A DNA stretch of 64,000 nucleotides from Escherichia coli. GTDB taxonomy: Bacteria; Pseudomonadota; Gammaproteobacteria; Enterobacterales; Enterobacteriaceae. The position numbers and the translations under genes are program-made. Numbering within the stretch: position 1 is the first letter of the stretch; the number at the start of each line of letters is the position of its first letter. Below are positions 5,891-64,000 of this stretch, piece by piece. Below the pieces are notes generated by a model. It was not told the origin of the DNA. It was given only the letters and a program-made list of their open reading frames with translations, and made no database searches. The stretch lies in NCBI RefSeq assembly GCF_003018255.1, contig NZ_CP027440.1; one strand, 5' to 3'.

Positions 5891-6265
<375 letters not shown>

Positions 6266-6268
6266 TCT

Positions 6269-7396
6269 ATGTCGTGCCCGGTTATTGAGCTGACACAACA
6301 GCTTATTCGCCGCCCTTCCCTGAGTCCTGATGACGCAGGATGCCAGGCTTTGTTGATTGAACGTTTGCAGGCGATCGGTTTTACCGTTGAACGCATGGAC
6401 TTTGCCGATACGCAGAATTTTTGGGCATGGCGTGGGCAGGGTGAAACGTTAGCCTTTGCCGGGCATACCGACGTGGTGCCGCCTGGCGACGCCGACCGTT
6501 GGATCAATCCGCCGTTTGAACCCACCATTCGTGACGGCATGTTATTCGGGCGCGGTGCGGCAGATATGAAAGGCTCGCTGGCGGCGATGGTGGTAGCGGC
6601 AGAACGTTTTGTCGCACAACATCCCAACCATACGGGGCGACTGGCATTTCTGATCACCTCTGATGAAGAAGCTAGTGCCCACAACGGTACGGTAAAAGTC
6701 GTCGAAGCGTTAATGGCGCGTAATGAGCGTCTCGATTACTGTCTGGTTGGCGAACCGTCGAGTATCGAAGTGGTTGGTGATGTGGTGAAAAATGGTCGTC
6801 GCGGATCGTTAACCTGCAACCTCACCATTCATGGCGTGCAGGGGCATGTTGCCTACCCACATCTGGCTGACAATCCGGTACATCGCGCAGCACCTTTCCT
6901 TAATGAATTAGTGGCTATTGAGTGGGATCAGGGCAATGAATTCTTCCCGGCGACCAGTATGCAGATTGCCAATATTCAGGCGGGAACGGGCAGTAACAAC
7001 GTTATTCCGGGTGAACTGTTTGTGCAGTTTAACTTCCGCTTCAGCACCGAACTGACTGATGAGATGATCAAAGCGCAGGTACTTGCCCTGCTTGAAAAAC
7101 ATCAACTGCGCTATACGGTGGATTGGTGGCTTTCCGGGCAGCCATTTTTGACCGCGCGCGGTAAACTGGTGGATGCGGTCGTTAACGCGGTTGAGCACTA
7201 TAATGAAATTAAACCGCAGCTACTAACCACAGGCGGAACGTCCGACGGGCGCTTTATTGCCCGCATGGGGGCGCAGGTGGTGGAACTCGGGCCGGTCAAT
7301 GCCACTATTCATAAAATTAATGAATGTGTGAACGCTGCCGACCTGCAGCTACTTGCCCGTATGTATCAACGTATCATGGAACAGCTCGTCGCCTGA
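6269..7396 (+). CDS. dapE: Succinyl-diaminopimelate desuccinylase (M20 peptidase)
   Basis: 375 aa; GHTDVVP and metal-binding motifs of the M20 family; 3 nt after the yffB stop. Confidence 0.92.
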
Positions 7397-7423
7397 TGAG
7401 TGGTTCTGCAAGAGGAAATAAGC

Positions 7424-10492: not shown

Positions 10493-10506
10493 CCCTGCCC
10501 CGGAAG

Positions 10507-13498: not shown

Positions 13499-13514
13499 CA
13501 AATCTCCCTAAACT

Positions 13515-14393
13515 TTACAGCAAACCGGCATGCTTAAGCGCCGCTCTGACCGTCTCACGACCACTGTCGGTGATTGGTGTCATTGGCAGGCGCAGCGTAT
13601 CGGTCGCCACAAGACCCAGTTCCTTACATGCCCATTTCACCGGGATTGGATTGGGTTCGACAAATAGTTTGTTGTGTAATGGCATCAGACGCTGATTAAT
13701 AACGCGTGCCTCGGCAAAATGCCCTTCTGCTGCCAGTTTGCACATCTGGGCCATATCACGCGCTGCGACGTTAGCCGTAACGGAAATAACCCCATGACCG
13801 CCTAATTGCATGAAGTCCAGCGCGCTCGCATCATCGCCGCTCAGCAGAACAAAATCATCTGAAACCAGCTCTTTGATCTGGTTTACACGCGTTAAGTTCC
13901 CTGTTGCCTCTTTGATTCCGATAATATTTTTTACTTTCGCCAGACGGCCCACCGTTTCCGGGAGCAGATCGCAGCCAGTACGGGACGGCACATTATACAG
14001 AATTTGCGGCAGGTCAGTATGTTCAGCGATGGCTTTGAAATGCTGATACAAACCTTCTTGCGACGGACGATTGTAGTAAGGGGTTACCGTCAGGCAGCCG
14101 ACGATACCGCTGTCATTGAAGCGCTGCGTCAGGCTAATGGCTTCCGCAGTAGCGTTAGCACCGGTCCCGGCAATCACCGGAATGCGCCCGTCAGCCAGCT
14201 CCAGCGTCATCATCACCACATCAGCATGTTCGTCATGATTTAAGGTAGCGGACTCGCCAGTGGTGCCAACAGAAACGATCGCCGAAGTACCGCTGGCGAC
14301 ATGATAATCAATCAGTTTTTTCATGCTAGCCCGACAGACATTACCTTTTTCATCCATCGGAGTAACAATCGCGACAATACTTCCCGTGAACAT
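13515..14393 (-). CDS. dapA: 4-hydroxy-tetrahydrodipicolinate synthase
   Basis: ORF 13515..14411; probable start at [17 protein letters not shown] for a 292-aa product. Confidence 0.92.
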
Positions 14394-14538
14394 GGGCCAT
14401 CCTCTGTGCAAACAAGTGTCTCAATGGTACGTTTGGTATGGCATTAAAAGCAAGCAGACAGAACCGTTCTGATTGTTGTATGCATGTTTTTTTTATGCTT
14501 TCCTTAAGAACAACTCACCCCTTGAAGGAATAACCAGT

Positions 14539-15111
14539 TTGACACTGTCATCGCAACATTATCTGGTGATCACTGCGTTGGGTGCCGATCGCCCTGGAAT
14601 TGTGAACACCATCACCCGTCATGTCAGTAGTTGCGGCTGTAATATTGAAGACAGTCGCCTGGCGATGCTGGGAGAAGAGTTCACGTTTATCATGCTGCTT
14701 TCCGGTTCATGGAATGCCATTACTCTGATTGAATCAACGTTACCGTTGAAAGGTGCCGAGCTGGATCTTTTAATCGTGATGAAGCGCACGACGGCGCGTC
14801 CGCGTCCGCCAATGCCAGCATCTGTCTGGGTTCAGGTCGATGTGGCAGACTCCCCGCATTTAATTGAACGCTTCACAGCACTTTTCGACGCGCATCATAT
14901 GAACATTGCGGAGCTGGTGTCGCGCACGCAACCTGCTGAAAATGAACGGGCTGCGCAGTTGCATATTCAGATAACCGCCCACAGCCCCGCATCTGCGGAC
15001 GCAGCAAATATTGAGCAAGCATTCAAAGCCCTATGTACAGAACTCAATGCACAAGGCAGTATTAACGTCGTCAATTATTCCCAACATGATGAACAGGATG
15101 GAGTTAAGTAA
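14539..15111 (+). CDS. gcvR: Glycine cleavage system transcriptional repressor (ACT domains)
   Basis: ORF track begins at 14473, but the conserved protein begins at LTLSSQHYLVITALGADRPGIV; probable TTG start at 14539 giving 190 aa. Stop overlaps the bcp start (TAATG). Confidence 0.8.
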   Translation: MTLSSQHYLVITALGADRPGIVNTITRHVSSCGCNIEDSRLAMLGEEFTFIMLLSGSWNAITLIESTLPLKGAELDLLIVMKRTTARPRPPMPASVWVQVDVADSPHLIERFTALFDAHHMNIAELVSRTQPAENERAAQLHIQITAHSPASADAANIEQAFKALCTELNAQGSINVVNYSQHDEQDGVK

Positions 15112-15581
15112 TGAATCCACTGAAAGCCGGTGATATCGCACCGAAATTTAGCTTGCCGGATCAAGACGGAGAACAAGTTAATTTGACCGACTTCCAGGGA
15201 CAGCGTGTTCTGGTTTATTTCTACCCGAAAGCCATGACCCCCGGCTGTACCGTACAGGCCTGCGGCTTACGCGATAACATGGATGAGTTGAAAAAAGCGG
15301 GCGTTGATGTGCTGGGTATCAGCACCGATAAACCCGAAAAACTCTCCCGTTTTGCGGAAAAAGAGCTGCTTAACTTTACGCTCCTGTCTGATGAGGACCA
15401 CCAGGTGTGCGAACAATTCGGCGTCTGGGGTGAAAAGTCCTTCATGGGCAAAACCTACGATGGTATTCATCGCATCAGCTTCCTGATTGACGCTGATGGC
15501 AAAATCGAACATGTCTTTGACGATTTCAAAACCAGCAATCACCACGACGTTGTGCTGAACTGGCTGAAAGAACACGCCTGA
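15111..15581 (+). CDS. bcp: Thiol peroxidase / peroxiredoxin Bcp
   Basis: 156 aa; peroxidatic cysteine motif FYPKAMTPGCT. Confidence 0.92.
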   Translation: MNPLKAGDIAPKFSLPDQDGEQVNLTDFQGQRVLVYFYPKAMTPGCTVQACGLRDNMDELKKAGVDVLGISTDKPEKLSRFAEKELLNFTLLSDEDHQVCEQFGVWGEKSFMGKTYDGIHRISFLIDADGKIEHVFDDFKTSNHHDVVLNWLKEHA

Positions 15582-15679
15582 TTACTTTGCTCCATTCCGT
15601 GCTGGCTGCGCTTGCGGCCAGCACATCTCACATCTTCTCACTGCCCTGCAACACTCGTTTCAAATTTTTTCGCTGAAGG

Positions 15680-16741
15680 TCAGTCTTGCGCGATTTGCCC
15701 ATCGGGCCAGGCGTGAATCACGGCTTTGATCAGCGTCGCCAATGGAATGGCGAAGAATACGCCCCAGAATCCCCACAAACCACCGAAGATCACTACTGAT
15801 AAAATAATGACCAGCGGATGCAGGTTAACCGCTTCGGAGAACAACACAGGTACTAACAGGTTGCCGTCCAGCGCCTGAATGATCAGATACACCGCGAAGC
15901 AGCTCCAGAATTCCGTGCCAGCACCAAACTGGAATAGCGCCACGCCAACCACCGGAATGGTCACCACAAATGCACCAATGTACGGAATAAGTACCGAGAA
16001 GCCGACCAGCACCGCCAGCAGCAGCGAATAGTTCAGCCCGAAGAGTAAGAATCCCAGCCAGGTGGCAATCCCCACCACGATCATCTCCAGCACTTTGCCG
16101 CGGATATAGTTGGTGATTTGTTGATTCATCTCCTTCCACACCTGTCCTGCCAGTCCACGGTTACGCGGCAGCACCCGGCGAACGGCGTTCAGCATCTGCT
16201 CTTTGTCTTTCAGCAGGAAGAAGACCATCAATGGTACCAGCACCAGATAGACGGCAATGGTCAGCAAACCGACCAGCGAGGCGAGGGAAATTTTCACCAC
16301 CGAATCGCCCATGGTCAGCATCCGACTGCGCATATTTTCGGCCATTGCATCAATAATGCCCGCATCCATTAACGCCGGATAGCGGCGCGGCAACGTGGCG
16401 GCAAAGTCAGAAAGCTTATTGAGCATCCCCGGCATATCGCGGATTAAGTAGATGCCCTGCTGCCAGGCGATAGGCAGTACCACGAACGCCATCAGTAGCA
16501 ATATACCGACGAAAACCACCAATACAATCGACGTCGCCCAGCGGCGGGAGCAGCCAATAGATTGCAGGCGCACGGTTGGCCATTCCAGCAAATAGGCCAG
16601 CACAATAGCCACCAACAGCGGAGCAAGCAGGCCACTAAAGAAAAAGATAATGCCAAATCCGGCAACTAAAATAACCAGCAAGGCAATCGCTTCCGGGTCG
16701 CTAAAACGGCGGCGATACCATTGCATCAACATTTCGAGCAT
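15680..16741 (-). CDS. perM: AI-2E family inner membrane permease PerM (YfgO)
   Basis: 353 aa, polytopic membrane protein; follows bcp directly in this strain. Confidence 0.85.
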   Translation of the reverse strand: MLEMLMQWYRRRFSDPEAIALLVILVAGFGIIFFFSGLLAPLLVAIVLAYLLEWPTVRLQSIGCSRRWATSIVLVVFVGILLLMAFVVLPIAWQQGIYLIRDMPGMLNKLSDFAATLPRRYPALMDAGIIDAMAENMRSRMLTMGDSVVKISLASLVGLLTIAVYLVLVPLMVFFLLKDKEQMLNAVRRVLPRNRGLAGQVWKEMNQQITNYIRGKVLEMIVVGIATWLGFLLFGLNYSLLLAVLVGFSVLIPYIGAFVVTIPVVGVALFQFGAGTEFWSCFAVYLIIQALDGNLLVPVLFSEAVNLHPLVIILSVVIFGGLWGFWGVFFAIPLATLIKAVIHAWPDGQIAQD

Positions 16742-22006: not shown

Positions 22007-23061
<1,055 letters not shown>

Positions 23062-23062
<1 letters not shown>

Positions 23063-23700
23063 TGAATATTGTGGTGCTTATTTCCGGCAACGGAAGTAAT
23101 TTGCAGGCAATTATTGACGCCTGCAAAACCAACAAAATTAAAGGCACCGTACGGGCAGTTTTCAGCAATAAGGCCGACGCGTTCGGCCTTGAACGCGCCC
23201 GCCAGGCGGGTATTGCAACGCATACGCTCATCACCAGCGCGTTTGACAGTCGTGAAGCCTATGACCGGGAGTTGATTCATGAAATCGACATGTACGCACC
23301 CGATGTGGTCGTGCTGGCTGGTTTTATGCGCATTCTCAGCCCGGCGTTTGTCTCCCACTATGCCGGGCGTTTGCTGAACATTCACCCTTCTCTGCTGCCG
23401 AAATATCCCGGATTACACACCCATCGTCAGGCGCTGGAAAATGGCGATGAGGAGCACGGTACATCGGTGCATTTCGTCACCGATGAACTGGACGGTGGCC
23501 CGGTTATTTTACAGGCGAAAGTCCCGGTATTTGCTGGTGATACGGAAGATGACATCACCGCCCGCGTGCAAACCCAGGAACACGCTATTTATCCACTGGT
23601 GATTAGCTGGTTTGCCGATGGTCGTCTGAAAATGCACGAAAACGCCGCGTGGCTGGATGGTCAACGTCTGCCGCCGCAGGGCTACGCTGCCGACGAGTAA
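23062..23700 (+). CDS. purN: Phosphoribosylglycinamide formyltransferase
   Basis: 212 aa; start overlaps the purM stop (TAATG), consistent with the purMN operon. Confidence 0.92.
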
Positions 23701-23870: not shown

Positions 23871-27483
<3,613 letters not shown>

Positions 27484-31137: not shown

Positions 31138-31152
31138 TAATCAGGAGGAGTC

Positions 31153-36503: not shown

Positions 36504-39500
36504 TTACTGGAAGCAGGTCACCAGACCCGGTTTATTTTTTATTAGCGTGATACTACAATCCTGCGCTCCAGTACCTTCGTCCATCCCACACTGTTGAGAG
36601 GACAAATAAGGAAAACTGGGTGAAGACGGCCATCCCAGTGAATTAAAAACAGTATGCAACAACTCTAATTCATTGTATGTCGGTGCATTTTCTATGCTGC
36701 CACACTGCCTTGCGATATCCCATTTACTGGCATCAATGATATGTGCAGAAGCCCAGTTTTCGTAGTTAATAATCGGTGAGGATACGGGATTAGCCCCGGA
36801 CGGCAATTCCGTCGTTAACAACGGTCGATGTAGCGATTTACTAGTCACCACTACCGTGTCTGCCATATGTCCCCAAAAGTGCGCCGATGAAACATTTGGG
36901 CTGGTTGGCACCGTAAAAATAGCATCCAGCGTGTCTGTCGCGGAAGCGTAATTAGCCAGAGTAACCGTCAGTGGCATTTTATAACCAGGGGTATTATCCT
37001 GGCGGAGCGTAAAACTTGCCGTCCCATCCGCGCCTGTCATGCCACTAATGGTATTACCGCTTTCACTCAGCGTAACAGCCGAACCTGATAACGGCTGAAC
37101 GACGAGATCGTCCATCGCCACTACATTGCCATACAACGTTGCCCCAGCGTTACGCGGCGATGCCTCACCACGTTTCAAAGTAAATTCAACATTCGGCACC
37201 GTATTCCCGGCGCTGTCTTTCACCGTCACGGTTACGGACATGGCTTCGCCTTTTTTCACTTTCGCCGCCTGAGTGGCTGCATCAAACGCTGTTGAGGTAA
37301 GTGTGACGCTGGAAACGGTTGAACGCGCGTTAGCCAGGCAAGGCTGAAATGATTTTGTTGAACCCGTATACAGCGTGCCATTTCTCAAATCAACCGACTG
37401 GTCTTTACCATCGGCGGATTTATCCTCTGCCCACCAGGTGTAATACGCAGGCCAGCCAGTTTCAGTGACAAACGTGTTATTCGGATAACGCGCAGACAAC
37501 GAACTTAAATCATTGAATAGTGGCTGCCTTGCTACTTCACAAGGGCTCACACTCGCATCTGATTTCTGTGTTGGGGTAAAGTACGGCCAGTCTTCATTAT
37601 TGTTATTGATCTTGCCGACGCCAGAAGTCGATGTCAGTTCACTCCACAATTTCGGGCGTTCAAATACCGCACCATTCACTGCCGTCAAGGTTGCTGGCAT
37701 ATGCCCCCAGTAGTTAGCCTTCGCAGAATCCGGGCTGGTCACTACCGTGAATATCAGGTCCTGATTAGCCGTAACCTGCGGATTTCGCGCCAATGAAGCT
37801 GTAAACGGCGTTACCAGACCGACGGTGTTATTTTGGGTAACGTTGAACGTTATCGTGCCATCACTGCCGGTGAAGCCGCTCCATGCCGACGTATTCTGGT
37901 TGAAGGAGATACGCGCCGATGTTGGGGTGACTTCATCTAAAATGAGATCATCTACGGTATTGGAGGATACAGAGATCCCTGAACGGCTTTTCGCCTGCAC
38001 GCGCTTGAGCGTAACACCTTCGCCGCCAACAGGATTACCATTGGCATCTTTGATCGTCACCACGATGGGAAGCATCTCACCTTTTTTCACAGATGACGTG
38101 GGGGTACCACCATTGCTGGCAGTTCGGCCCTCATCATAGGCAGTCGATGACAGCGTAAGGCTTGCTGGTGCCGAATGTGGCTGCGTCAGACAGAGCATTA
38201 AAGCGTATCCATTAATAGTCGTCGTCGATTGTCCCGTTTTCAAATTAATGACGCCGTAATACCACGTCAACGCGTCAGTGGTGCTCATTTCATAAGTCCA
38301 CCAATTTCCACTTCCGGCAGTTATAGGCAACCCCAAATCTGTCAGTATTGTCCCGCCTGGATGATCATTATATAGCCCCTGTAACTCATTGAGACGCGGC
38401 TGATACTCAACCGGGCAATCCGGCGTAACTTTATTGGTATAAAAAAGGTATGACCACGACTCATTATTATTACTTACCGAGGACCCCAAGGTCGCTTCTG
38501 CTGCCAGTAGCGGTCGTTTAAAGGTCACCCCCGCCCTACTGGTAAACGTGTCGGGCATATGACCCCAGTATTTTGCTTTCGGTGAGTTCGGACTGGTTAT
38601 CACAGTGAAAATAACATCCATCGTGGCACTTTTTGTGGTGTCGCGCATCAATGTTGCAGTGAGCGGAGTTGCCAGCCCATAAGTCTCGTTTTGCGTCACA
38701 TCAAAAGTCGCTTTACCATCACTTCCTGTCGTCAGAAGTGCCTGTGCCCCATTATTATAGAGTGACATGTTTACTCCGGCAGGGGTGACCGGCACGATAG
38801 TAAGATCATCATACGTAGAATCTAGCCTGTTTTTTGCACGATCCAACGCAGTCCCGCGTATGAGATTAAAGTTTGCGCCTGGCAACAGATTTCCTCCGCT
38901 ATCCCGCACAATCACCGTCATCCGGATCGCCGTACCTTTCGCCGCCGTTGCACTAGGGCGACCATCGTTGCTGGCCGTTTTCTCCGCATCCAGTGCCGTG
39001 GAGGTCATCTCTATAGAAGCTGCCACTGCATGAGGGTTTACCAGACAGGACACAAATGCCACGGTGTTTGATAATGCCCTGGAGCTTGATCCATTCGATA
39101 AATTAATAGACTGATCGTACCAGACGTTCGCGTAGGCAATTTTATCGTAAGCCCACCAGGTGTTAGTCAGCGGAAGGCCTAAATCGGTCCCTATCGCACC
39201 ATTAGGATGTTCACTGTATAACTCTTGAAATTCGCTTAATAACGGTTGATAAGGTTCGCCGCAGTCTGATTTGCTGACATCATTTTTTGCTGCCGTATTC
39301 AAAGAAAGCCATGATTCATTATTAGCCATGGTTGACTGCCCCGCTGGATGCTCGGCAGTAAGCAATGGCCGCTTAAAGGCAATTCCCGACCGGGTAGTAA
39401 ACGTTTCAGGCATATGCCCCCAGTAACTTGCCAGTGGCGTATCCGGGCTGGTTATGACGGTAAACATGACCGGTAATTTGTTGGATTCTATCGTCAGCTG

Positions 39501-42500
39501 ATACAACTGGGCGTACATATTGGTTACCAGGCCCATAGAATCATCTTGTTTTACCGTAAAGGAGGTAGTCCCGTCCGCGCCAGTCACCCCATAAAGCAGG
39601 CTTGAAGAACTATTCATCCTCGCAGAAGCGCCTGCCGCGTTAATTACCGTAATCGACTTATTTATCATCTCGGCATTTTGACGGTTCTTCGAGCCTTCAC
39701 GTCTGAGAATAAAGGGGACATTGGGCACGCTATTTCCCTGCGTATTTTTAGTCACCACGCGAATCACCGCGTCTTCGCCTTTTTTCACTTTCAACGCACT
39801 CAAGGTGTCGTCAACTTTGACAAATTGCGCCGTATCATTCGCCTCAACAATGATCTGACTGGCAACGGCGACAGGCGTGGTCCGGCAGCTCAGTAATGCA
39901 CCACCAGATGAGGGCATCTGCGTTTCATCTCCTGTCTTCAGCGAAACGACATCATACGTAAAGGTTTGAGTGAACGTATCTGCAACGGTATTCGAGATAT
40001 AGAACCTCGACACTGGCCAGCCAATAGCATCATGTAATGCGCTACTCCCCTGGTGCGCATAAATGGCCCTAAGTTCATTGTCAGTTGGAACATACTCCGC
40101 GCCACAACCATTTATCGAGGTATCGTTAGCCTGGCCCGACGGGAACGTAGACCAGGCCTCCCCCTCTTCCACCAGGGTACCGATACTGGTGGTAGCACTA
40201 TTCTCGTCCCTCAGCAAAGGCCTTCGATAAATAAGACCGTCATCGCCTGTCGCCGTTTCAGCCATATGCCCCCAGAATTTGGCTTTTGGCGAATCCGGGC
40301 TGGTAAGCACCGTAAAGACAACGGGAAGCGTCGATTTAGTGCTGCTGGAGGAATCCAACGCTGCCGTGAGTTCTGTTTTTAGCCCGGTAGTCTGGTCTTG
40401 CTTCAATGTGAAAGTGGTGATGCCATCAGCCCCCGTCACGCCATAAATAACCAGGGTCGTTGAAAGAAAATCATCTTGAGTATTTCCCCAGGCATCCGTT
40501 ACCGCCAGCGAAGCAATCGACGTCGTAGTTGACACATTGGCCCTGTTCACGCTGGTGTTTCGTTTGAGGGTAAATGCGGTATTTCCCACAGGGTTACCCT
40601 GCGCATCTTTAGTGGTCACTCGTAATACGGCTTCTTCGCCTTTTTTCGCTTTGACAACATTATTCGTACTGTCAAATTTTGTGGGGTCTGCAGCTTCAAG
40701 AACAATTTGGCTTGCCTTAACAATCGGCGTCGTCTGGCAGGTAAGCAGTTCTTTTGTGGCAGATGGAATTATCGAACTGGTGCCTGAACTGAGATTGACG
40801 GCCTTGAAGTCACGCTGTTCCAGGCTACTACTACCTGTTGTGCTGGAAAGGTAACTTGAGGCGACGGGCCAGCCCTGAACCGTTTTCATCGCATTGCCGC
40901 GGTTGGCTTCATACAATGACTCCAGCCCGGCCTGGGAGGGAACATATTCACTACCACAACCATTAGAGGCTGTGCTTATAGCCTGGGTTTGGGTAAATTG
41001 CGCCCAGTCTTCATTCTCTTCTGCAATCGCTGTTCGACCCGACGTACTGGATAACTCTTTCAACAATAATGGGCGTTTAAAGACCGTTCCATCTGCAGCC
41101 GTCACTGTTTCAGGCATATGCCCCCACATTTTCGCCTTATCGCTGTCCGGGCTGGTGACAACGGTAAAAATGGTATCGAGGGTCGCTTTTTTCGTTGTGT
41201 CTGAATAGAGCGCGACGGTCAGCGACGTTTTTGTGCCATGGGTATCCGGGCGGGTAATAGTGAGAATTTTAGTGCCATCGCTGCCGGTCATCGCGCTGTA
41301 TGCTGCGGCGGTATCATTGAGCGAAGTTTCATCCGCCAGGCCACTATTGATCACAACCGGCGCAACCAGCGCATCACCGCCACCGGCAATGTGTTTTTCG
41401 TTTGATCGGGTATAACCATCGCCACGCTTCAGCGTAAAAGGCATATCACCCAATGGATTGCCCTGAGCATCTTTTACCGTCACCTTCACCTGTAGCGTTT
41501 CGCCTTTTTTCAGCTTCGCCGCATTTGCTGCCGCGTTCCACTGCGCCGGGTCCACCACTTCCAGCGTAATGCTGCTGGCAGGATTGTTAGCCGTCGTCAG
41601 GCAACTGACATAAACCGCCGTGCTACCGCCAACGGTCCGCGCGCCATCGTTGAGGGCTATGGTGTAGTAATGCGGCACCTGATCCGCGGGCGAACTGCTC
41701 CAGTAGGGCTGACGCTGCGTTGGCCAACCGTGTACCGTTTGAACGGCGTTACCGCTGTTAGCATCATAGAGCGCGTTAAGCTGGGAACGGCGTGGGAGCA
41801 TATTGGCACCACAGCCACCTTTACTGGTGCTGGAAGTGTTGGCCTGGCTAACGCGCGACCACACTTCGTTATTTTCCGTTAATGTGCCGTCCGGGCTGGA
41901 CACTTCCGCAGCCAGCCGGGGTCGGGCAAAGGTTAATGCATCGACGGTAATCGTCTCATCCATATGACCCCACATCTGCGCGCCAACCGCATCCGGACTG
42001 GTGAGCGTAGTGAAAATCACATTGTAATTAACAGTATTGGGAATATAGGAGTTTACAGGCGCAATATTCAGCGGCGTCGCTAAGCCCACACCTTGCGGTT
42101 GCTTAATTTCCACAGTAGCAAAACCCTGCGCATCCGTAGTACCGGCATAGACTAAAGACGGTTGCGATGTTCCGTAGAGTGTGCCATTCATCTCGATTGC
42201 GCCGCGGGTTGGATCATCAAAACCTGTAGTCTGCCCCTGACGATTTTTCCCCATATCTTTAGTGATGGTGAACGCGGTATACGGCACGGGCGCATTATTC
42301 AAGGCATTAAAGGTGCGTACCGTCATGGTAATCGTTTCACCCTCTTTAGCCTGCGCTCTGCTGCTTGTGGAAACATCATGATCGGTGGTCGCAGCAATCT
42401 GGGCGACCATCTCATTGCCCGAACAAGAAAGGTAGTTTTGCTTAAAGCCGGAATAGGTGTCGATGTTGCCCGTGGCCAGGTTCACCGACGCGTGCGACGT

Positions 42501-44558
42501 CTCTTCCACCGCACTAAGATACGCTTTTTGCAACGTTGGCCAGCCATATTCGGTGCCGATGACATTGGCTGGATGTGCGGCAAACAAACTGTGCAATGAG
42601 CTTTGGCTCGGAATATGACCTAAACCACACTCAGCCTGCATACTGCTATTCTGATCAAACAGCGCCCAGTCTTCGTTATTTTCCCGCACTGCTCCCAGTT
42701 CGTTGTCGGTTTCATCCGCCAGCCGTGGGCGTTTAAAGATATTATTCGCTTCAATAATGCCTAACATATGTCCCCACATCCGCGCTTTGTCGGAATCAGG
42801 GCTGGTGATCACCGTAAAAATAACGTCTTTCTCATCCGAGGCGGTAAAATCACTGCGCATTTTCGCGGTGATGTGTGTTTTCACCCCCACGCCGCCTGGC
42901 TGGGTCAGCGTCAGAGAGGCCTCTCCGTTAGCATCAGTGATCCCTTCATAGGTATGCGCGTCAACTTTGCGAACGTTACTGCCACCATCAATTTGTACCG
43001 GATGCGTCTCCCACGCAGCGTCAGTTTGATTCTTACGGTTAACACCGTCATCCAGATGCAGCGAAAAGTAGTAGTAAGCCAGCGGCTGATCGTTGTTCTT
43101 GCTATCGGTAATCGTCAGGCGTAAAGAAGCCTCTTCCCCCACCTTTACTTTCATCGCTTTTATCGTCGAATCATAACTGCCCGGCGTCAGTACCAGCTTC
43201 GGTTCAACATCGGGCGCTTCTTTATCGACACAGCTCACAATAAACGTCGTATCGTCCGGTTTTTGCGCTTCGCTGCGGTTCGAAACATCCGCCGCATGGT
43301 GCTGCCCGCTCATCCCCGCCAGTGATGACCAGTAGTAGTTACCCTGCATCGGCCAACCAGCCACATCCTGCACTGACGTTGGCACCACCGTCGCCAGCGC
43401 ACCGAACTGACGCATTCCGGGCAAAATGTCGCAATGTTTATCCGCACCACTCCAGGTAAAGGTGGACCAGGTTTCATTGTGATCGTTAACCGTACCGTCT
43501 TCATTATCGACTTCCGCCGCCAGTTTTGGTCGACTAAAAGTGTAATCACGGGCCTTCAGCGTATCGGGCATATGACCCCACATTGTGGCCTGCGGGACAT
43601 CCGGGCTGGTGAGGACGGTAAAGATCACTGCCGTTTCACTGGTCTGAGCAATACCCGCGAGGCTCGCGACCAACGGCGTTTTTACACCAGGGGCGTTGGC
43701 CTGGGTGACCGTAACCGTGGCAACACCATTCGCATCGGTAGTACCACGATATTCCGTCGCGGTGGTGGTTAATTCGGTCGTGCCCAGTTTTACCGGCGCA
43801 GTATTGTTCACTACACCCTGGCGGTTTTCAGCATCTTTGCGTTTGATAACAAAAGGAATATTCCCCACAACATTACCGACGCAATCTTTGGTGGTGACCG
43901 TTAACGTGATACTGCCGCCAACCGTCGTTTTCGCCGCACCGGAGGATTCGTCATAGCCCGCGGCGCTGACGGAAATAAGGTCACCCTGCGCGGGCGCAAT
44001 CTTCAGCGTCACTTTCTGATCGGCGAGGGTCAGAACACTTTCATAGGGATAGCCCGTCGAGGTAAGTAGATATAACAGCGGCATGGTCTGCTGGGGGTCT
44101 GGCTGCGCCCAGGCGATCAGCGAACGCCCGGCAAGGCCCTGTGCGCAAAATGAGCGATCTGCGACTGGCTGTGGGTCCAGTAAGGTGTCCGGCGTCGCGG
44201 CATCCGCCCAAACTAAAGATACTGTCGGTGGCGTTTGGTTTTCCCAACGTGGTGTGGCAATGATATCGCCTTCTCTGTCTTGCGGGTTGGTGACGAGCAA
44301 TTTAGAGACGCTAACATCCGCGCTGAATTCACTCGGTTTAGCGGTAAACGCTACCTCATGCGTCTTTGCAGGATCCAGAAAGACACTGCCCTGGTAGACG
44401 GGTATGCTGGCACTGTCGGCGGTGGGCACGGTACCGTTAAATTCGCCGACCGTATCTGAAGAGTCTTGCCATGCAGATTCTGCCCATGCCCCCCCAGGCA
44501 GCATTGCGCTTATCAGCAATGCGCAAAACACAAGGATTTTATTCAGGGTCAGGGACAT
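36504..44558 (-). CDS. ratA: Giant repetitive surface protein, RatA-like (signal peptide plus nine ~270-aa Ig-like/lectin-like repeat units)
   Basis: 2684-aa ORF with ATG at 44556-44558 and GGAG Shine-Dalgarno; signal peptide [26 protein letters not shown]; nine units each carrying ...FTV(I/L/V)TSPD...WGHMP... and a downstream Cys pair; T/S/N/G-rich. Last gene of the sinH-sinI-ratA arrangement. Confidence 0.8.
36750..43650 (-). repeat. Nine tandem, diverged ~0.80-0.86 kb intragenic repeat units within the ratA-like gene
   Basis: The DNA motif CATATG(A/C/T)CCCCA (encoding WGHM on the minus strand) recurs at about 36865, 37698, 38557, 39411, 40263, 41115, 41962, 42766 and 43569. Confidence 0.85.
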
Positions 44559-44678
44559 GACAGAAACTCCACCGGTTGTTAAACGGACGCTTGTCGCATC
44601 AACATATTTTGCTTAATCCGGGATTAAGCAAAATATGCGGAAACAGCATTCCCTTGCGGGAATGCTGCTGAGTACGCG

Positions 44679-45656
44679 TTATTTGTGTTTGTAAATAATG
44701 TGAAGTTTGTACCCCTGTACCCCGTCGCCGTTGGTCGGGATGGTAAGAGCTTCTTTACCATCGCGCGCAGGGCCGTTAAGGTTGGTTCTGGCGTCTTCGT
44801 TGGTCGCAGGGATGACCAGATTGTTATTATCGAAGCTTGAGTTGACGATACCACCCGAGGTGCCGAGCTGTTGGCTGCTGCCAGAAAGTACCCAACGGAA
44901 GTCATAATTGGCGGTAACGTCAGCATCGGTATCCGCATCAAACTTGCCATTTTTGTTCTCATCCGAGTACAGTTTGGCCACGTAGGTTTTGCCAAGTTCG
45001 ATTGGCGTACTGCCGTTGATAAGGTTGATACTGGTACCATCAACAAAGATGGCGACTTTCAGGTTCTGGTTAACTACCGGCCCTGGCGCAACGTTGTCGC
45101 TGTCGCTTCCGCCGCCGCTGGCAGTGGAAATGTCATAAAGATGCAGCGCAGTCCCGACGTTTGGCGTACCGGTCTGCGTGGTCGGCGTAATTTCAATACC
45201 GATATAACGACCACGGTCGTCATCGGTAAGAGTGTAACTGGTCACCTTCGTTGCCAGCTCTTTCGGATCGCCCCCCTGAGCGTCCTTGTAGCTCATCCAG
45301 CGGATAGTATCGATAGTCTTTGCGTTATCGCCCAATCCCCCAAGATCCACGTCGCCTTCGGTATCACCAATTTCCCAACTTACGGTTAATTTATCACCCG
45401 AGTAAAGACGCTTGTCCGTTTCACTGCCTGTCGGGCGAGCGCCTTTTAGATCAGAAGTCAACGTTACATGGTCGGCATCTGTCGTAGCGCTTCCCCCTTC
45501 CGAATAGAGCCACGGAATGGTTCCCTGGAAAATATTGGTTTCGCCGCTGTCGACCCAGGCGCTTTCTTCCGCCAGCGCCACAGGTGCCACACAATAACCT
45601 GCCAGTGCCAGCGCCAATGCGATCCGGGTCAGACCGCGTCTTTTATCCTGCTTCAT
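44679..45656 (-). CDS. sinI: SinI-like secreted protein (signal peptide; C-terminal domain paralogous to the SinH C-terminus)
   Basis: 325 aa; ATG at 45654-45656 with AGGAGA Shine-Dalgarno; signal peptide ...ALALAGYCVAPVALA; C-terminal ~110 aa aligns with the SinH C-terminus (LVIPATN, GDGxQGY motifs). Confidence 0.7.
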   Translation of the reverse strand: MKQDKRRGLTRIALALALAGYCVAPVALAEESAWVDSGETNIFQGTIPWLYSEGGSATTDADHVTLTSDLKGARPTGSETDKRLYSGDKLTVSWEIGDTEGDVDLGGLGDNAKTIDTIRWMSYKDAQGGDPKELATKVTSYTLTDDDRGRYIGIEITPTTQTGTPNVGTALHLYDISTASGGGSDSDNVAPGPVVNQNLKVAIFVDGTSINLINGSTPIELGKTYVAKLYSDENKNGKFDADTDADVTANYDFRWVLSGSSQQLGTSGGIVNSSFDNNNLVIPATNEDARTNLNGPARDGKEALTIPTNGDGVQGYKLHIIYKHK

Positions 45657-45710
45657 TGATGCTCTCCTTAATGAACCTTCAGCGACTGGCCGACTGGCCT
45701 TACGCCAATC

Positions 45711-51144: not shown

Positions 51145-51154
51145 CGGGTCCCTC

Positions 51155-57498: not shown

Positions 57499-59811
57499 CT
57501 ATTGCATGACAAATTTCACTGTCGCTATTTGCCCCACGTCATCCATCACCAGCAATTGATAATCGCCTTTATCCGTCAAATGCAGGGTCACGTTGCGCCC
57601 ACGTTCAGTTAACGGTTCGCCATTCAGAAACCACCAGCGTTCACCTGCCCCTCCACTTGATTGCAACGGCAAAGTCGCTTCCGCTGCGCCCGGTAAACGT
57701 TTAATAATCGCGCCATCGCGCACACCTGTTAGCTGCAGCGGGAGTTGTGCATCGTGACCGTATGGCGGGCAAATTGTCGAGGCCGGTGGCAAGCGCACAG
57801 CGCGACGTTCTGATGCGGGCAGCCAGGGTTCCAGCGGTAGCGGCCAGACATTTATCATTTCTTGTCGCGCCTGAGGGCAATCAGCGGCAACACGTTTGCC
57901 GTTTTCATCCAGCCAGATGGGGAAACGAATGCCATTAATGCCTTCCTGCTCCGGCAGTAATAGAGTTGGCGGCTGGCTCCCGTCCAGCAGCCAGGTTGCC
58001 AGGCGGCGGCGACAGTTACCGTCACCTTCCGGCAAAGACTGTCCGCCCGGCCAGCAGATAACGCCACGACTTACAGAGTCAGGACGTGGGTCTTCCGGCA
58101 AATTCACACTGCGCGACAGTAAGATATTATTAACCTGATTCAACAGCGGTACGGCACTGGCAAAGCCAAACTGACCAACAACGGGCGTGCCGTCCGGTCT
58201 GCCAGTCCAGATCCCAATGACATAGCGAGCGTTAACCCCAATCGCCCAGGCATCACGATAGCCATAGCTGGTGCCCGTTTTCCATGCCAGTGGGGCGACG
58301 CGCGGCAAGGCACCATCCGGCAAGGGTTGCGCTTCATCAGCCATAATCCGGCGAATGATCCACGCAGCCCCCGACGACATTAAAGGCCGTTCAAGCAGCG
58401 GATCGTCAGGCTGTAAGCGCAATTTGCCTGCCTTGCCGTGGCGAGCAAACGCGGTATACGCTGCCGCCATATCTTCCAGTTTTGCGCCAGCGCCGCCGAG
58501 AATGAGCGAAAGATTCGGTGCAGCACCGTTGGGCAAATACAACGGCAATCCAACATTGCGTAACTTTGCCGCAAACCGTTTCGGTCCATAGGATTCCAGC
58601 ACCTGCACAGCAGGTAAGTTCAGCGATCGCACCAGCGCCTCACTCATGCTGATCGGGCCATGAAAACCGCTGTCAAAGTTGCCAGGTCGGTAATCACCGG
58701 TGCGTCGGGGGACGTCTTGCAACAGCGATGCCGGGTGGATCAAGCCTTCATCCAGCGCCAGACCATAAACAAACGGTTTGAGCACCGATCCTGGCGATCG
58801 GATCGCATTGACCATATCAACATGACCAAAGCGTGAATCATCGTTGAGATCAACTGATCCCACCCAGCCGCGAACACGCATATCGGTATGATCAACCACG
58901 ATCATCGCCAGTGAGCTGCGCGGTGGCAATCGTCCTTTCCAGTTTTGCGCCAGTTCTTCCAGACGTCGTTGAAGACCGGCATCCAGCGTAGTAACGATTT
59001 TGTCGCTTTTGCTTTTACCGAGCATCATGCGCGAAAACAGCGGTGCCAGTTGCGGCATTTGTCGGGGTGCCAGCCAGATGGGTTCTTCCCTTGACTCTTT
59101 TACCCGCTCACGGGACCACACACCTTGCACGGCCATCCGTTCGAGCACTTTATTACGCGCGGCTTCGGCACGCTCCGGCCAACGATCCGGGCGAAGACGG
59201 CTGGGCGCTTGCGGCAACACCGCCAGCATTGCCGCCTCGGAATAGCTTAAATTCGCGGGCGATTTCCCGAGGTAAGCCCAACTTGCCGCACCAATCCCCT
59301 GCAACGTACCGCCAAACGGGGCACGGTTAAGATACAAGGTCAGAATTTCACGCTTAGACAGATGCCATTCCAGTTGCAACGCGCGCCAGAGCTGGCGAAT
59401 TTTGCCGCCAAACGTTTTGGGATGAGGATCAAGCAGGCGCGCCACCTGCATGGTGAGCGTGCTGCCGCCGGAAATGACCCGACCCGACGTGAGATCTTGC
59501 CAGGCTGCACGCGCCACCGAGAACGGATTCACCCCCGGATGCATCCAGAACCAGCGATCTTCATAATTGATCAGCGCTTCAAGGTAACGTGGAGAAACAT
59601 CTTCGATTGTTACCGGATAACGCCAGATACCGTCAGCATCGGCGAAACGCCAGAGTGGCGTACCATCCTGCGCCACCACCACGCGTGCAGGATTCACTTC
59701 TTGCAATGGCAGAGGCCAGAGTTTATCTGCTGCCCATGCTGCCAGAATGATGATAAAAGGCGCGGCTGCCAGCATTATCCAGCAGCCGCGTTTGGTTAAC
59801 AGGCGAGGCAT
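57499..59811 (-). CDS. pbpC: Penicillin-binding protein 1C (glycosyltransferase/transpeptidase)
   Basis: 770 aa; N-terminal TM anchor and transglycosylase motifs; start codon abuts the yfhM stop. Confidence 0.9.
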   Translation of the reverse strand: MPRLLTKRGCWIMLAAAPFIIILAAWAADKLWPLPLQEVNPARVVVAQDGTPLWRFADADGIWRYPVTIEDVSPRYLEALINYEDRWFWMHPGVNPFSVARAAWQDLTSGRVISGGSTLTMQVARLLDPHPKTFGGKIRQLWRALQLEWHLSKREILTLYLNRAPFGGTLQGIGAASWAYLGKSPANLSYSEAAMLAVLPQAPSRLRPDRWPERAEAARNKVLERMAVQGVWSRERVKESREEPIWLAPRQMPQLAPLFSRMMLGKSKSDKIVTTLDAGLQRRLEELAQNWKGRLPPRSSLAMIVVDHTDMRVRGWVGSVDLNDDSRFGHVDMVNAIRSPGSVLKPFVYGLALDEGLIHPASLLQDVPRRTGDYRPGNFDSGFHGPISMSEALVRSLNLPAVQVLESYGPKRFAAKLRNVGLPLYLPNGAAPNLSLILGGAGAKLEDMAAAYTAFARHGKAGKLRLQPDDPLLERPLMSSGAAWIIRRIMADEAQPLPDGALPRVAPLAWKTGTSYGYRDAWAIGVNARYVIGIWTGRPDGTPVVGQFGFASAVPLLNQVNNILLSRSVNLPEDPRPDSVSRGVICWPGGQSLPEGDGNCRRRLATWLLDGSQPPTLLLPEQEGINGIRFPIWLDENGKRVAADCPQARQEMINVWPLPLEPWLPASERRAVRLPPASTICPPYGHDAQLPLQLTGVRDGAIIKRLPGAAEATLPLQSSGGAGERWWFLNGEPLTERGRNVTLHLTDKGDYQLLVMDDVGQIATVKFVMQ

Positions 59812-62800
59812 TTACGGTCTGACTATCAACAGATCGTCAGCCGCACCAGTCGCCCGCCATTGAGGAACATACATTGATTCCACCATAGGCTGCGGCACCT
59901 GATACGTTCCCGGCGTCACCGCCCGCGCCAGATACACCAGCGTTACCGGTTGATATTCATCAACGGCAACCGCCGCCACAAAGCGATCGTCACGGAACTC
60001 TATGTGCTTAATGCTCGCCTGCTGCATCTGGTTCAGCAAGTTCTGCACTTCACCACCACTTTGCTCCAGGCTGGCGCTGCCGTTCGCCAGATTCTGGTTT
60101 TCCAGTTCCAGCCCCGCAGGCAACAGATCCACGACTAACGCATCCGGTACACTGTTACTGGCTTTAACCTGCAACCACACCAGCACCAGATCGCCGCTAC
60201 GTAACGAGTCCAGCGATTTGCTCTTACCGTCAGTACCCAGAATATGACGCTCAATTTGCAGCACATTGCTCGCCGGTAAAGGTGCGGATTGCGGATAACC
60301 GCTGGCATCCACACGCAGCCATAACGGCTGATCGCCACTGTTGGTCACCTGCAAGGTGGCAAGTTGATCGCTATTCAGATTGCTGGTTTGCGCTTTCTCG
60401 CCTGTCAACGGCTCAGCAGAGAAAGTGGTTTGCGCCTGCCATTTGCCCGGTAAATCCTGAAGAGTACGGGCAGCCAGGAACAACGCGTTACTTTCCTGCG
60501 TCGATAGCCAGCGTTCACCGAACGCCTGCTGCGAAAGTGTGTTTAACAGGGAGTACTGCTCATCGGGTAGCAGTTTGTTCTCTTCCAGCAATGAGAGCAT
60601 CAACGCGCTGTCTCGCAGTGGACTACCGTAATCACCCAGCCATATCCGCTCATCACTATTACGCGGCGTTTTCAGCGCCAGCGCAATCGCTTCTTCACCA
60701 CGCGTCGCATCACCCATGATTTTCAGCGCAACGCCAAGTTGCAGCAGCGGTAAACCAGAAGCGGCATCTGCACGATGCTCCCAGATTTCACGCAGCGCAC
60801 CCAGTGGTGCTTTTTGCTGACGGGCCAACACCAGCGCAGCGTAAGACTGTACGGCGAATTTACTGGCTTTGAGATTATCAGCGTACGGGATCGACATCAT
60901 GCCCGGATCTTGTAAATAGCGCAGCAGACGCTCATTACCCCGGTTAATGGCGTCTGTCGGTACGCTGTAACCCTGTTCGCCTGCGCGGACCAGGAAATCC
61001 ATCACGTAAGCCGTCAGCCAGTACTCTTCGTCACCGTTTTTATCCCACAGCGTAAAGCCGCCGTTATCACGTTGCATTTGCAGCAAACGGGAAATGCCGA
61101 TATCGACCGATGCACGGCGTTTCTCATCACTGTCGCCTTTGATGCCCAACGCCTGCAGTTGGGCTGCATTGGTATAAAGTGACGGGAACAGGCCGCTGGT
61201 GGTTTGCTCGAGACAGCCGTACGGATACGCTTTTAACTCTTTGATATAACGTGCGATGTTCAGCGGTGGTTTGCCGCTCAACAACAATTGCCCTTCCAGC
61301 GTAACAGGCGAGAAGTTTTGCAATCCATCAGCCGGGAGCGCCCAGGTTTCACCAGGCTGTAACGCCGTACCGTAATTGACCGTTTGTGCCGGGAATGCCG
61401 GACGGACGCCGATTTTCCACTGCTTATGCTGATCGGCAACGGTTTCCCCGGGTAACGCTAACCCGCTAATGGTGGCCTGAATGTCTCCATCGCCATAACC
61501 CGGCAATGCACGCACCGGGATAAACAGCGTAGTACGCACCCCTGGCGCTAATTCAACAGGTGCGGGGGAATTACTCACCAGTTCAAGCAAGCCACTGGCG
61601 GTCAGAGCAACATTAAGTTTTTGCGGTTTATCGGTAAGATTAGTGATATCCAGCGTCAGGCGCGAGGTATCGCCACTCGCCATAAAGCGTGGCATGTTCA
61701 GTTCAGCAATCACCGGTGCAGCAACAATCACTTTGCTTTCGTTGCTTCCGAAGTCATCTGCCGTCCAGGCTTGCGCCATGACGCGCAATTCACCGTTAAA
61801 ATCGCCAATTGGCAGTGTAACCGAGCCTTCGCCCTGTTCGTTGAGCGTTACCGGCAGCGCCTGCTGCGCGACAATATTGACGTGATTGACCGGCGGTTTA
61901 CCACCACGTTTCAGCTCATCACCATCACCACCAAAACGCAGAGCTGCCAGACGCCCCTGACCTTCAATGACCTGACCGTAAATATCGTAAATGTCTGCGC
62001 CATAGCGTTTCTGACCAAAGAACGCCTGCCACGGATCTGGCGTGACGTAATCAGTAATATTCAGCACACCGCTATCAACGGCAGACACCAGCACATTCAC
62101 CTGTTTTGGCATCTCACCATTTTTATTGCTGGCTTTAATTTTCACGGTTAATGGCTGATTGGGGCGCATTTTGGTAGGGGTTTCCAGCGCCAGATCGAGG
62201 CGACGGTTTTCATCACCAAGCGGCAGATGCAACACCCCAACCGCGCGTTTTGGCGTCGCGGAGCGAGATTTATCGCCAGGACGTACCACCAGCGTACTTA
62301 AATACAGATCATGACGATTCCAGGTTTTATCGACCGGAATCGTCAGATCCAGCCCTTGAGCCGGAACATCAATCTCTTGCCACCACAGCGGCCCTTCACT
62401 GGACTCGACCATCGCATAACCTTTACCCGCCGTTGGCGCGGCAATATGCAACTTAATGGTATCGCCAGGGCGATAGCTGGCTTTATCCAGTTTCAGCGTG
62501 ACACGGTCGGGTCGCACTGCACCACCCCCGTCGCTGTTATCCTGCCAGCTATAACCAGCCCAGAAACGCACACTACTGACCGCTTCATTCGGCGCTTTAA
62601 CTTCCAGACGATAAGCGCCCCACTCTACCGGGAAACTGACCTTACCGGTTTCGTCCGCTTTCAGATCCAGAGTTTGTTCATTTTCGATCAGATCTTTTTG
62701 ATCAAACTGTGACTGCCAGCCTTCATATTCCGACCAGTTCCAGTAGTAATCGCGGCGTTCGCGAATCAGGCGCACCTGCAAGCCCGACACGGCTTTTTTC

Positions 62801-64000
62801 ACGCCTTGCGCATCGCTATAAACGATGTCAAAAGCGGCGTTACTGCCTTCATCAACAATGGGCTGTTTCACCGTGCTGTCGGTGCGATAATCGTAAACCG
62901 ATTTCGAGGCGAACTGCGGACGGATCCCCGGCAATGCATCGGCAGGCCAGATAGCCTGCTCAGCACGGCGCGTCACCGGGCGACCGCCCGATTCCAGCAA
63001 ACTACCCTGGAAAATAACCTGTAATGGGGAATGCGTTTCCTTCCACTGGCTTTCTGTAGAAACTTCGCCGCGCCCTTTATCATCCAGCGTCAACTGAACT
63101 TCATCCAGCGTGCGGGAAAGATTTTCGGCAGCTATATCGCCGAATTCAAAACCAGGTAAGGCTGATACAGCTTCACGCAGTGGGCGCAGGAAAAGTTGCC
63201 CTTGCAAAGTATTACCATTAGCAGGTGCGCCATACAGGTAGTACCCCACCACGGAGAATTTCACTTCATCTTTCGGCGTTAGCGGGGTTTTCTCACCGGT
63301 CAGATTCAGCGCCATACGCTCTGGCATAAAATCTTCGACGTGGAAATCCCACATCCGATACTGGTTATCGCCCGTGTTAGCGCGAATATGCCACATACCG
63401 GTTGCCGCATTGCTATCGAGTGGCCAGGTAAAGTGGTAGAGGCCATTCTCCGGCTGACTAACGACGCTCCTGAGTACCTGCCCGTCGGGTTTAATCACGT
63501 CCAGCTTGACAGGTTGATCGGGCAACGCTTTACCGTCTGCATCACGCAGCAAACCATTGAGGATGACCGTTTCACCCGGGCGATAAAGATCGCGCGGGCC
63601 AAACATGAAAAACTGTTTGCTATAGCCCGGCGCGCCAGCAATGTTAAATTCCGCTAAGTCCAGCGCCGGGAGTTTTAAATCGAGCAGCGTTGTCTGACCG
63701 TTTTTACGCGCCAGCAGTAATGCCGCGTTTTTATCATTTTCCAGCTGCACATGCCCTTGAGCGTCACTGCTTGCCTGAGTCAGAGTCTGCCCTTTCTCAT
63801 TTAATAAAGAGACTTCAATTCCTTGCTGGGCCGCGCCGTTTTCCAGACTTTGGGTAAAGATATCCAGACGATTGTGATAACGGTGAGCTGAAACGCCAAT
63901 ATCACTTAACGTAAACAGCGTCGCGGGATTACTGTAATCGTAACGTCCAGCCTGATTCATCACAGCCAGATACACGCCCGCCTGCTGAAGCGGTTTGATA
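59812..64000 (-). CDS. yfhM: Alpha-2-macroglobulin family lipoprotein YfhM, C-terminal ~1395 codons (N-terminus beyond window end)
   Basis: Open frame runs to the window edge; thioester-type motif GCLEQTTS present; operon partner of pbpC. Confidence 0.88.
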   Translation of the reverse strand, partial: IKPLQQAGVYLAVMNQAGRYDYSNPATLFTLSDIGVSAHRYHNRLDIFTQSLENGAAQQGIEVSLLNEKGQTLTQASSDAQGHVQLENDKNAALLLARKNGQTTLLDLKLPALDLAEFNIAGAPGYSKQFFMFGPRDLYRPGETVILNGLLRDADGKALPDQPVKLDVIKPDGQVLRSVVSQPENGLYHFTWPLDSNAATGMWHIRANTGDNQYRMWDFHVEDFMPERMALNLTGEKTPLTPKDEVKFSVVGYYLYGAPANGNTLQGQLFLRPLREAVSALPGFEFGDIAAENLSRTLDEVQLTLDDKGRGEVSTESQWKETHSPLQVIFQGSLLESGGRPVTRRAEQAIWPADALPGIRPQFASKSVYDYRTDSTVKQPIVDEGSNAAFDIVYSDAQGVKKAVSGLQVRLIRERRDYYWNWSEYEGWQSQFDQKDLIENEQTLDLKADETGKVSFPVEWGAYRLEVKAPNEAVSSVRFWAGYSWQDNSDGGGAVRPDRVTLKLDKASYRPGDTIKLHIAAPTAGKGYAMVESSEGPLWWQEIDVPAQGLDLTIPVDKTWNRHDLYLSTLVVRPGDKSRSATPKRAVGVLHLPLGDENRRLDLALETPTKMRPNQPLTVKIKASNKNGEMPKQVNVLVSAVDSGVLNITDYVTPDPWQAFFGQKRYGADIYDIYGQVIEGQGRLAALRFGGDGDELKRGGKPPVNHVNIVAQQALPVTLNEQGEGSVTLPIGDFNGELRVMAQAWTADDFGSNESKVIVAAPVIAELNMPRFMASGDTSRLTLDITNLTDKPQKLNVALTASGLLELVSNSPAPVELAPGVRTTLFIPVRALPGYGDGDIQATISGLALPGETVADQHKQWKIGVRPAFPAQTVNYGTALQPGETWALPADGLQNFSPVTLEGQLLLSGKPPLNIARYIKELKAYPYGCLEQTTSGLFPSLYTNAAQLQALGIKGDSDEKRRASVDIGISRLLQMQRDNGGFTLWDKNGDEEYWLTAYVMDFLVRAGEQGYSVPTDAINRGNERLLRYLQDPGMMSIPYADNLKASKFAVQSYAALVLARQQKAPLGALREIWEHRADAASGLPLLQLGVALKIMGDATRGEEAIALALKTPRNSDERIWLGDYGSPLRDSALMLSLLEENKLLPDEQYSLLNTLSQQAFGERWLSTQESNALFLAARTLQDLPGKWQAQTTFSAEPLTGEKAQTSNLNSDQLATLQVTNSGDQPLWLRVDASGYPQSAPLPASNVLQIERHILGTDGKSKSLDSLRSGDLVLVWLQVKASNSVPDALVVDLLPAGLELENQNLANGSASLEQSGGEVQNLLNQMQQASIKHIEFRDDRFVAAVAVDEYQPVTLVYLARAVTPGTYQVPQPMVESMYVPQWRATGAADDLLIVRP

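Follow-up and report, generated by a model that had tools for sequence, protein, structure and literature searches.

Spacing and ribosome-binding sites at five compact gene junctions of an Escherichia coli chromosome segment

Introduction

At positions 15,109–15,113 of the DNA analysed here, the stop codon of gcvR and the start codon of bcp share one base, and four other gene pairs of the same stretch overlap, abut or lie within a few nucleotides of each other. Does such spacing mean that the second gene of a pair is translated by ribosomes that have just finished the first, or is it only the compact layout of an operon? The window (the whole stretch of 64,000 nucleotides that was analysed) is E. 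coli chromosome running from narQ to yfhM, and the PGAP annotation of a near-identical E. coli genome spans all of it; the 3.3 kb around the gcvR/bcp junction are 100% identical to E. coli chromosomes.

Classical coupled pairs include trpE-trpD, trpB-trpA and galT-galK (cited in PMC5318159). According to reporter tests, reinitiation in E. coli requires that two genes overlap or lie only a few nucleotides apart, and it almost disappears at a gap of about 20 nt (PMC10666635). Five overlapping E. coli pairs, which do not include the five of the window, have been tested elsewhere: three were strongly coupled, one was coupled at about 60%, and bioBF, with an overlap and a weak Shine-Dalgarno sequence (SD), was yet uncoupled (PMC6728339). 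For the window, our results make it highly probable that the five junctions are ordinary compact boundaries in known transcription units, at which purN, ppx and pbpC would lean on upstream ribosomes and dapE and bcp would be initiated largely de novo.

Gene calls and positions of the junctions

All 45 complete CDSs transferred from the PGAP reference have intact frames in the window. The genes and junction elements of the five pairs are as follows (coordinates are positions in the window; free energies are those of the SD score described below).

yffB: 5909..6265, plus strand, 118 aa, ArsC-family; upstream gene, TAG at 6263-6265; PGAP transfer
dapE Shine-Dalgarno GAGGTG: 6257..6262, plus strand, in the last two yffB codons; -6.9 kcal/mol
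yffB/dapE spacer TCT: 6266..6268, plus strand, 3 nt between the yffB TAG and the dapE ATG
dapE: 6269..7396, plus strand, 375 aa; downstream gene, ATG at 6269-6271, with ypfN 27 nt further on
gcvR: 14539..15111, plus strand, 190 aa, TTG start; upstream gene; PGAP transfer with CDS intact
bcp Shine-Dalgarno GGAG: 15100..15103, plus strand, within the last gcvR codons, 7 nt before the ATG; anti-SD duplex of -6.5 kcal/mol
gcvR/bcp junction TAATG: 15109..15113, plus strand, gcvR TAA at 15109-15111 and bcp ATG at 15111-15113, sharing one A
bcp: 15111..15581, plus strand, 156 aa, thiol peroxidase; downstream gene; PGAP transfer
purM: 22025..23062, plus strand, 345 aa, GTG start; upstream gene; PGAP transfer
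purM/purN junction TAATG: 23060..23064, plus strand, purM TAA at 23060-23062 and purN ATG at 23062-23064, a 1-nt overlap without an upstream SD (-2.2 kcal/mol)
purN: 23062..23700, plus strand, 212 aa; downstream gene; PGAP transfer
ppk: 23871..25937, plus strand, 688 aa; upstream gene; PGAP transfer
ppk/ppx spacer CCCT: 25938..25941, plus strand, 4 nt from the ppk TAA to the ppx ATG, without an SD (+0.1 kcal/mol)
ppx: 25942..27483, plus strand, 513 aa; downstream gene; PGAP transfer
pbpC: 57499..59811, minus strand, 770 aa, PBP1c; downstream gene; PGAP
pbpC codons 1-12: 59776-59811, minus strand; this longer, 770-aa form is backed by the Citrobacter sequence
yfhM/pbpC junction TAAATG: 59809..59814, minus strand, yfhM TAA at 59814-59812 and pbpC ATG at 59811-59809, gap 0, without an SD (+0.4 kcal/mol)
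yfhM, 3' part: 59812..64000, minus strand, alpha2-macroglobulin; upstream gene, continuing past the window end

The spacings are -1 nt for gcvR/bcp and purM/purN, 0 for yfhM/pbpC, +3 for yffB/dapE and +4 for ppk/ppx. They are the tightest among the 32 same-strand neighbour pairs of the window (the next are 10-17 nt), and in all five the downstream gene, on the same strand, begins between about -8 and +6 nt from the stop of the upstream gene. The first-pass annotation had named these genes and placed these junctions; the names are right, with the PGAP CDSs of the near-identical genome mapping intact, and all five junctions proved exact to the base. We note that the truncated yfhM frame (a 1,387-aa ORF in the ORF list) is an effect of the window edge, the frame being open to base 64000. 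In the transferred annotation hda (19604) starts with CTG and gcvR (14539) with TTG.

The start and stop assignments were upheld by the intact PGAP CDSs and by N-termini conserved across genera, those of dapE, purN, ppx and bcp aligning from residue 1-3. It is very improbable that one or more junctions are start-codon artefacts, for example with pbpC starting at Met13, 36 nt downstream. In a large public collection of proteins, the 90% cluster of E. coli PbpC does have as its representative a 758-aa protein, matching a Met13 start; however, Met13 is not conserved, Citrobacter having Trp at this position and yet conserving the upstream KRGCW and the TAAATG, and the PGAP call is the 770-aa form. 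Against artefacts at the other junctions stand the N-terminal alignments of the four remaining downstream proteins.

Frequency of tight spacing

The pentamer TAATG occurs 156 times in the window (87 + 69 over the two strands) and is therefore uninformative by itself; the non-random elements are its location at the meeting point of two conserved reading frames and the retention of the tight spacing across species. Spacings of -8 to +6 nt are found in 707 of the 2,987 unidirectional pairs of E. coli K-12 (24%), with -4 and -1 nt the commonest; the -1 nt class (TAATG/TGATG) ranks second (PMC10666635). Five of the 32 same-strand pairs of the window (16%) fall in this range as compared to 7.6 expected (binomial p = 0.40), an ordinary number for E. 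coli.

Ribosome-binding sites and accessibility of the downstream starts

The SD score is the pairing of the 20 nt before a start codon with the 3' end of 16S rRNA, and its median over the 45 genes is -6.1 kcal/mol. The group with the weakest SDs includes purN (-2.2 kcal/mol), ppx (+0.1 kcal/mol) and pbpC (+0.4 kcal/mol), while bcp (-6.5 kcal/mol) and dapE (-6.9 kcal/mol) are normal. Weak SDs are found in 3 of the 5 tight pairs vs 6 of the 40 other genes (Fisher p = 0.047). Predicted accessibility of the start region did not separate the tight pairs from the other genes: the ppx start region is the most unstructured in the window (predicted accessibility 0.67, top of 45 genes), and those of pbpC and purN are rather closed.

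Conservation of the junctions in related species

For purM/purN, ppk/ppx and gcvR/bcp we compared 80 PurN-centred loci with up to 10 kb of flank from a collection of species-representative genomes (Escherichia, Citrobacter, Salmonella, Enterobacter, Klebsiella, Kosakonia, Pantoea, Erwinia and others), in which the genes were located by tblastn. These loci stop short of dapE and pbpC, and those two pairs were compared separately.

The purM and purN genes overlap in all 80 Enterobacterales species, 29 with TAATG/TGATG and 51 with ATGA, and a gap is found in none. An SD of -5 kcal/mol or stronger precedes purN in 0/80 species and purM in 78/78. Of the 75 species with both ppk and ppx, 68 have a gap of 2-6 nt between them (66 computed, plus loci L007 and L052 read by eye as 4 and 3 nt) and five, in the Cedecea/Buttiauxella group, a gap of 22-23 nt; the gap is 62 nt in two Citrobacter, namely L014 (Citrobacter sp. 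MGH106) and L015 (Citrobacter sp. Res13-Sevr-PEB04-36). Here, too, the distal gene is without an SD at that threshold (ppx, 0/74 species) and the proximal gene has one (ppk, 77/77).

In these two Citrobacter loci an imperfect palindrome of about 125 nt (...AAGTAAGTGACTGGGGTG...CAACTTGAAGTATGACGG) lies exactly at the ppk stop (12910-13040 in L014 and 12890-13020 in L015). The insert lengthens Ppk by 22 residues and puts the new stop 62 nt before the ppx start, and its predicted fold energies are -43 and -37 kcal/mol. The palindrome seems to resemble the ERIC consensus.

Among the 15 species with both gcvR and bcp in the locus, the spacing is -1 nt in 11, -4 nt in one, +2 nt in two and +15 nt in one. 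An SD for bcp (-5 kcal/mol or stronger) is present in 15 of the 15 other species with both genes in the locus.

The yffB/dapE pair was compared on the contigs of five YffB homologues, one from each other genus. The order yffB-dapE-ypfN is kept in all five, with yffB/dapE gaps of 3 nt in Salmonella, Kosakonia and Citrobacter, 1 nt in Franconibacter and 4 nt in Atlantibacter, and GAGGT is retained before dapE in each of these genera. Within the species, 5,424 of 5,426 complete E. coli genomes carry the yffB/dapE junction.

A search with PbpC gave almost only Citrobacter homologues (86% identity), and Citrobacter has an identical TAAATG yfhM/pbpC junction; more distant homologues came from the representative search. 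Six distant pbpC loci were obtained, two of which ended too near the gene and one of which had a 24-aa upstream fragment; in the three informative loci, with PbpC identities of 60%, 53% and 41%, an alpha2-macroglobulin gene lies directly upstream at gaps of 287, 53 and 19 nt, respectively. By these sequence comparisons, the adjacency of the alpha2-macroglobulin gene and pbpC is widely conserved, and only close relatives (among the loci examined, Escherichia and Citrobacter) have the abutment. The 287-nt spacer (L085, 1714-2000; 60%-identical PbpC homologue) contains a G+C-rich hairpin (GGGGCGAGGAGCATCGCCCC), and in this locus the two genes may be separately transcribed.

Taking the comparisons together with the SD scores, we found conserved tight spacing combined with a weak or missing distal ribosome-binding site for purN and ppx and partly for pbpC, which is tight only in close relatives; bcp and dapE do not show this combination.

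Transcription units and expression in K-12

The purM and purN genes form an operon, purMN, in a K-12 operon table (PMC3946193), and the window carries the same genes in the same order with the 1-nt overlap, i.e. the same operon in another strain. Their mRNA levels in K-12 are 83 vs 64 and their ribosome densities 98 vs 40 (PMC5318159 supplement). The same table lists yffB-dapE-ypfN as an operon (yffB--ypfN; PMC3946193), a unit whose three genes are found without difference in the window; here the mRNA levels are 130 for yffB, 186 for dapE and 160 for ypfN, and the ribosome densities are 278 for yffB vs 136 for dapE (PMC5318159 supplement). The similar mRNA levels within yffB/dapE and purM/purN are consistent with co-transcription, and in both pairs the distal ribosome density in these K-12 data (PMC5318159) is about half of the proximal one, which is compatible with reinitiation.

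An alpha2-macroglobulin gene has been described in an operon with PBP1c (PMC5764988). The window pair resembles the type I bacterial alpha2-macroglobulin/PBP1c pair (PMC5764988, PMC3735191) in having yfhM directly upstream of pbpC, but pairs elsewhere have gaps of 19-287 nt, and the stop abutting the start is a feature of Escherichia and Citrobacter.

The polyphosphate operon ppk-ppx of E. coli is present in the window with the same genes and the same 4-nt spacer; its natural variants in related loci are the 22-23-nt spacers and the ERIC-like insertion. Akiyama, Crooke and Kornberg reportedly described these two genes as an operon in 1993. A search of the SMRT-Cappable-seq and OperonSEQer supplements found no mention of the ten genes.

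The first-pass annotation had also read the junctions as conserved operons that support the gene calls. Both points stand: all five pairs are adjacent in other genera, and operon tables and similar mRNA levels back some of them. Its title, which called the pairs translationally coupled, was inferred and does not apply uniformly; for three pairs the label is plausible, and for one it is doubtful.

Relative expression of gcvR and bcp

The pair with which we started departs most clearly from simple coupling. Reported protein mass fractions are about 6.0e-4 for Bcp and about 8.7e-5 for GcvR (PMC8144880 Dataset EV9), which with masses of 17.6 and 20.8 kDa gives a Bcp:GcvR molar ratio of about 8. 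If reinitiation were the sole route, downstream synthesis could not exceed upstream synthesis; for this pair the downstream protein is in about 8-fold molar excess. Since Bcp is about 8-fold over GcvR and the TTG start of gcvR is weak, bcp is not fed mainly by ribosomes finishing gcvR. It must be initiated mostly independently of gcvR, and exclusive reinitiation is excluded unless the stabilities differ greatly or most bcp mRNA comes from a promoter inside gcvR. We also note that the weak TTG start of gcvR fits the low abundance of GcvR relative to Bcp.

In the K-12 data set that covers purM/purN and yffB/dapE, bcp has an mRNA level of 285 and a ribosome density of 637, and gcvR did not pass the filters (PMC5318159 supplement); gcvR is a single-gene unit in the K-12 operon table (PMC3946193). 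In our literature search, no transcript data turned up that directly show a gcvR-bcp mRNA. A scan of 14300-15750 for sigma-70 promoters and intrinsic terminators found nothing on the plus strand within gcvR, a result that is uninformative, the documented gcvR promoter having been missed as well.

Other features of the window

Several further features were identified in the window. The looser spacers of 10-27 nt, all with good SD sites, belong to the '+10 nt' class of E. coli, whose pairs are thought to be co-transcribed and independently initiated (PMC10666635).

dapE-ypfN spacer: 7397-7423
ypfJ-tmcA spacer: 10493-10506
dapA-bamC spacer: 13499-13514
yfgH-yfgI spacer: 31138-31152
yfgM-bamB spacer: 51145-51154
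hisS-yfgM spacer: 51776-51792
accessory adhesin island: 36504-47888, minus strand, between xseA and yfgJ/der, with a 2,684-aa adhesion-domain protein, a SinI-family protein and SinH (intimin-like inverse autotransporter)
sroE small RNA: 53087-53178, minus strand, between ispG and hisS, the sole Rfam match in the window (116.6 bits)

The core genes flanking the adhesin island diverge from the near-identical reference (xseA 92.8%, guaB 96.5% and der 96.2% identity vs at least 99% elsewhere), a pattern in the sequence that suggests recombination around the island. No tRNA genes were found in the window. The bcp stop and the yfgO stop are separated by 98 nt (15582-15679), and bcp and yfgO are contiguous in only 1,125 of 5,426 complete E. 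coli genomes, the query matching most genomes at two sites. The gene after bcp in K-12 is hyfA (PMC5493296). With hyfA after bcp in K-12 and only 98 nt between bcp and yfgO here, the strain appears to lack the hyf-focB block.

Discussion

Junctions of this kind are known and standard in bacterial operons, and true translational coupling is likely for only some of the five pairs. The distances between the genes are too short to hold a terminator or a promoter, so each pair would be readable from one mRNA. A ribosome finishing the upstream gene would be released on the next start or at most 4 nt from it, an arrangement that allows termination-reinitiation; upstream translation could also open up any structure that covers the start of the next gene. 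For purN, ppx and pbpC a large share of initiations is probably made by ribosomes coming from purM, ppk and yfhM, respectively; purN and ppx plausibly rely on reinitiation because they are without an SD in every species examined. For dapE and bcp, initiation is probably de novo for the most part, at conserved strong SDs that lie within the final codons of the upstream genes. For ppx, the 22-23-nt gaps in five species and the Citrobacter insertion speak against such reliance on upstream ribosomes. The pairs share with the overlapping or abutting reinitiation pairs of Huber et al. 2019 (PMC6728339) and Huber et al. 2023 (PMC10666635) the common strand, the spacings of -1, 0, +3 and +4 nt and, in some cases, an SD-less distal gene. 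Unlike overlapping pairs in general, which are reportedly enriched for heteromeric complexes, most of the window pairs encode proteins not known to belong to a common complex, and in contrast to the classical coupled pairs, the gcvR/bcp proteins are not stoichiometric (about 1:8).

Coupling could also be lacking altogether, with the genes co-transcribed, brought close by a bias towards deletions and by drifting start codons, and initiated independently, so that the spacing has no translational role. The bioBF precedent (PMC6728339) lends this some weight, as do the 8-fold excess of Bcp, the conserved strong SDs of bcp and dapE, the highly unstructured ppx start region, the tolerance of an ERIC-like insertion between ppk and ppx, and the variable alpha2-macroglobulin-pbpC spacing in distant taxa. 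We nevertheless think it rather unlikely for the set as a whole: the purM/purN gap never opens in 80 species although the form of the junction changes, three of the five tested overlapping E. coli pairs are strongly coupled and a fourth partly (PMC6728339), and an SD is absent from purN and ppx in all species but always present on the first genes of their operons, as one would expect of distal genes that do not depend on recruiting ribosomes de novo. At the other extreme, ppx and likewise purN might have no ribosome-binding site of their own across Enterobacterales and be translated essentially only via ribosomes from ppk and purM. That strict dependence seems doubtful to us; SD-independent de novo initiation of ppx is possible, given that its start region is predicted to be the most accessible one.

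For gcvR/bcp in particular, the two genes may not form one operon at all, most bcp expression coming from a promoter of its own within gcvR and the TAATG overlap being incidental. We regard this as possible, if short of probable. The unrelated functions of GcvR and Bcp point to it, as do the solitary entry of gcvR in the operon table (PMC3946193), the protein ratio, and the passage of bcp (mRNA 285), with gcvR absent from the filtered list, through the expression filters of the DMS/ribosome-profiling data (PMC5318159). Yet adjacency and a tight junction are retained in 15/15 species, and a weak gcvR TTG together with a strong bcp SD could give 8:1 from a single mRNA; the simple sigma-70 scan found no promoter-like site on the plus strand of gcvR, which is uninformative, the known gcvR promoter having escaped it too. 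For bcp, as for dapE, we favour a compact boundary in a probable shared transcription unit with initiation largely de novo.

The value of these junctions is mostly that of quality control, in that they confirm the standard E. coli gene calls and operon structure in the window. If the strict dependence of ppx and purN on upstream ribosomes were true, the PPK:PPX (and PurM:PurN) ratio would be hard-wired by the efficiency of reinitiation, and the two Citrobacter with the ~125-nt ERIC-like element at the ppk stop would represent naturally uncoupled mutants in which polyphosphate turnover is altered. Across about 80 species, whether or not the distal gene has an SD separates purN, ppx and pbpC, which probably depend on reinitiation, from bcp and dapE, and gcvR/bcp, with its 8:1 protein ratio, is a clear counter-example to the notion that a stop/start overlap proves translational coupling.
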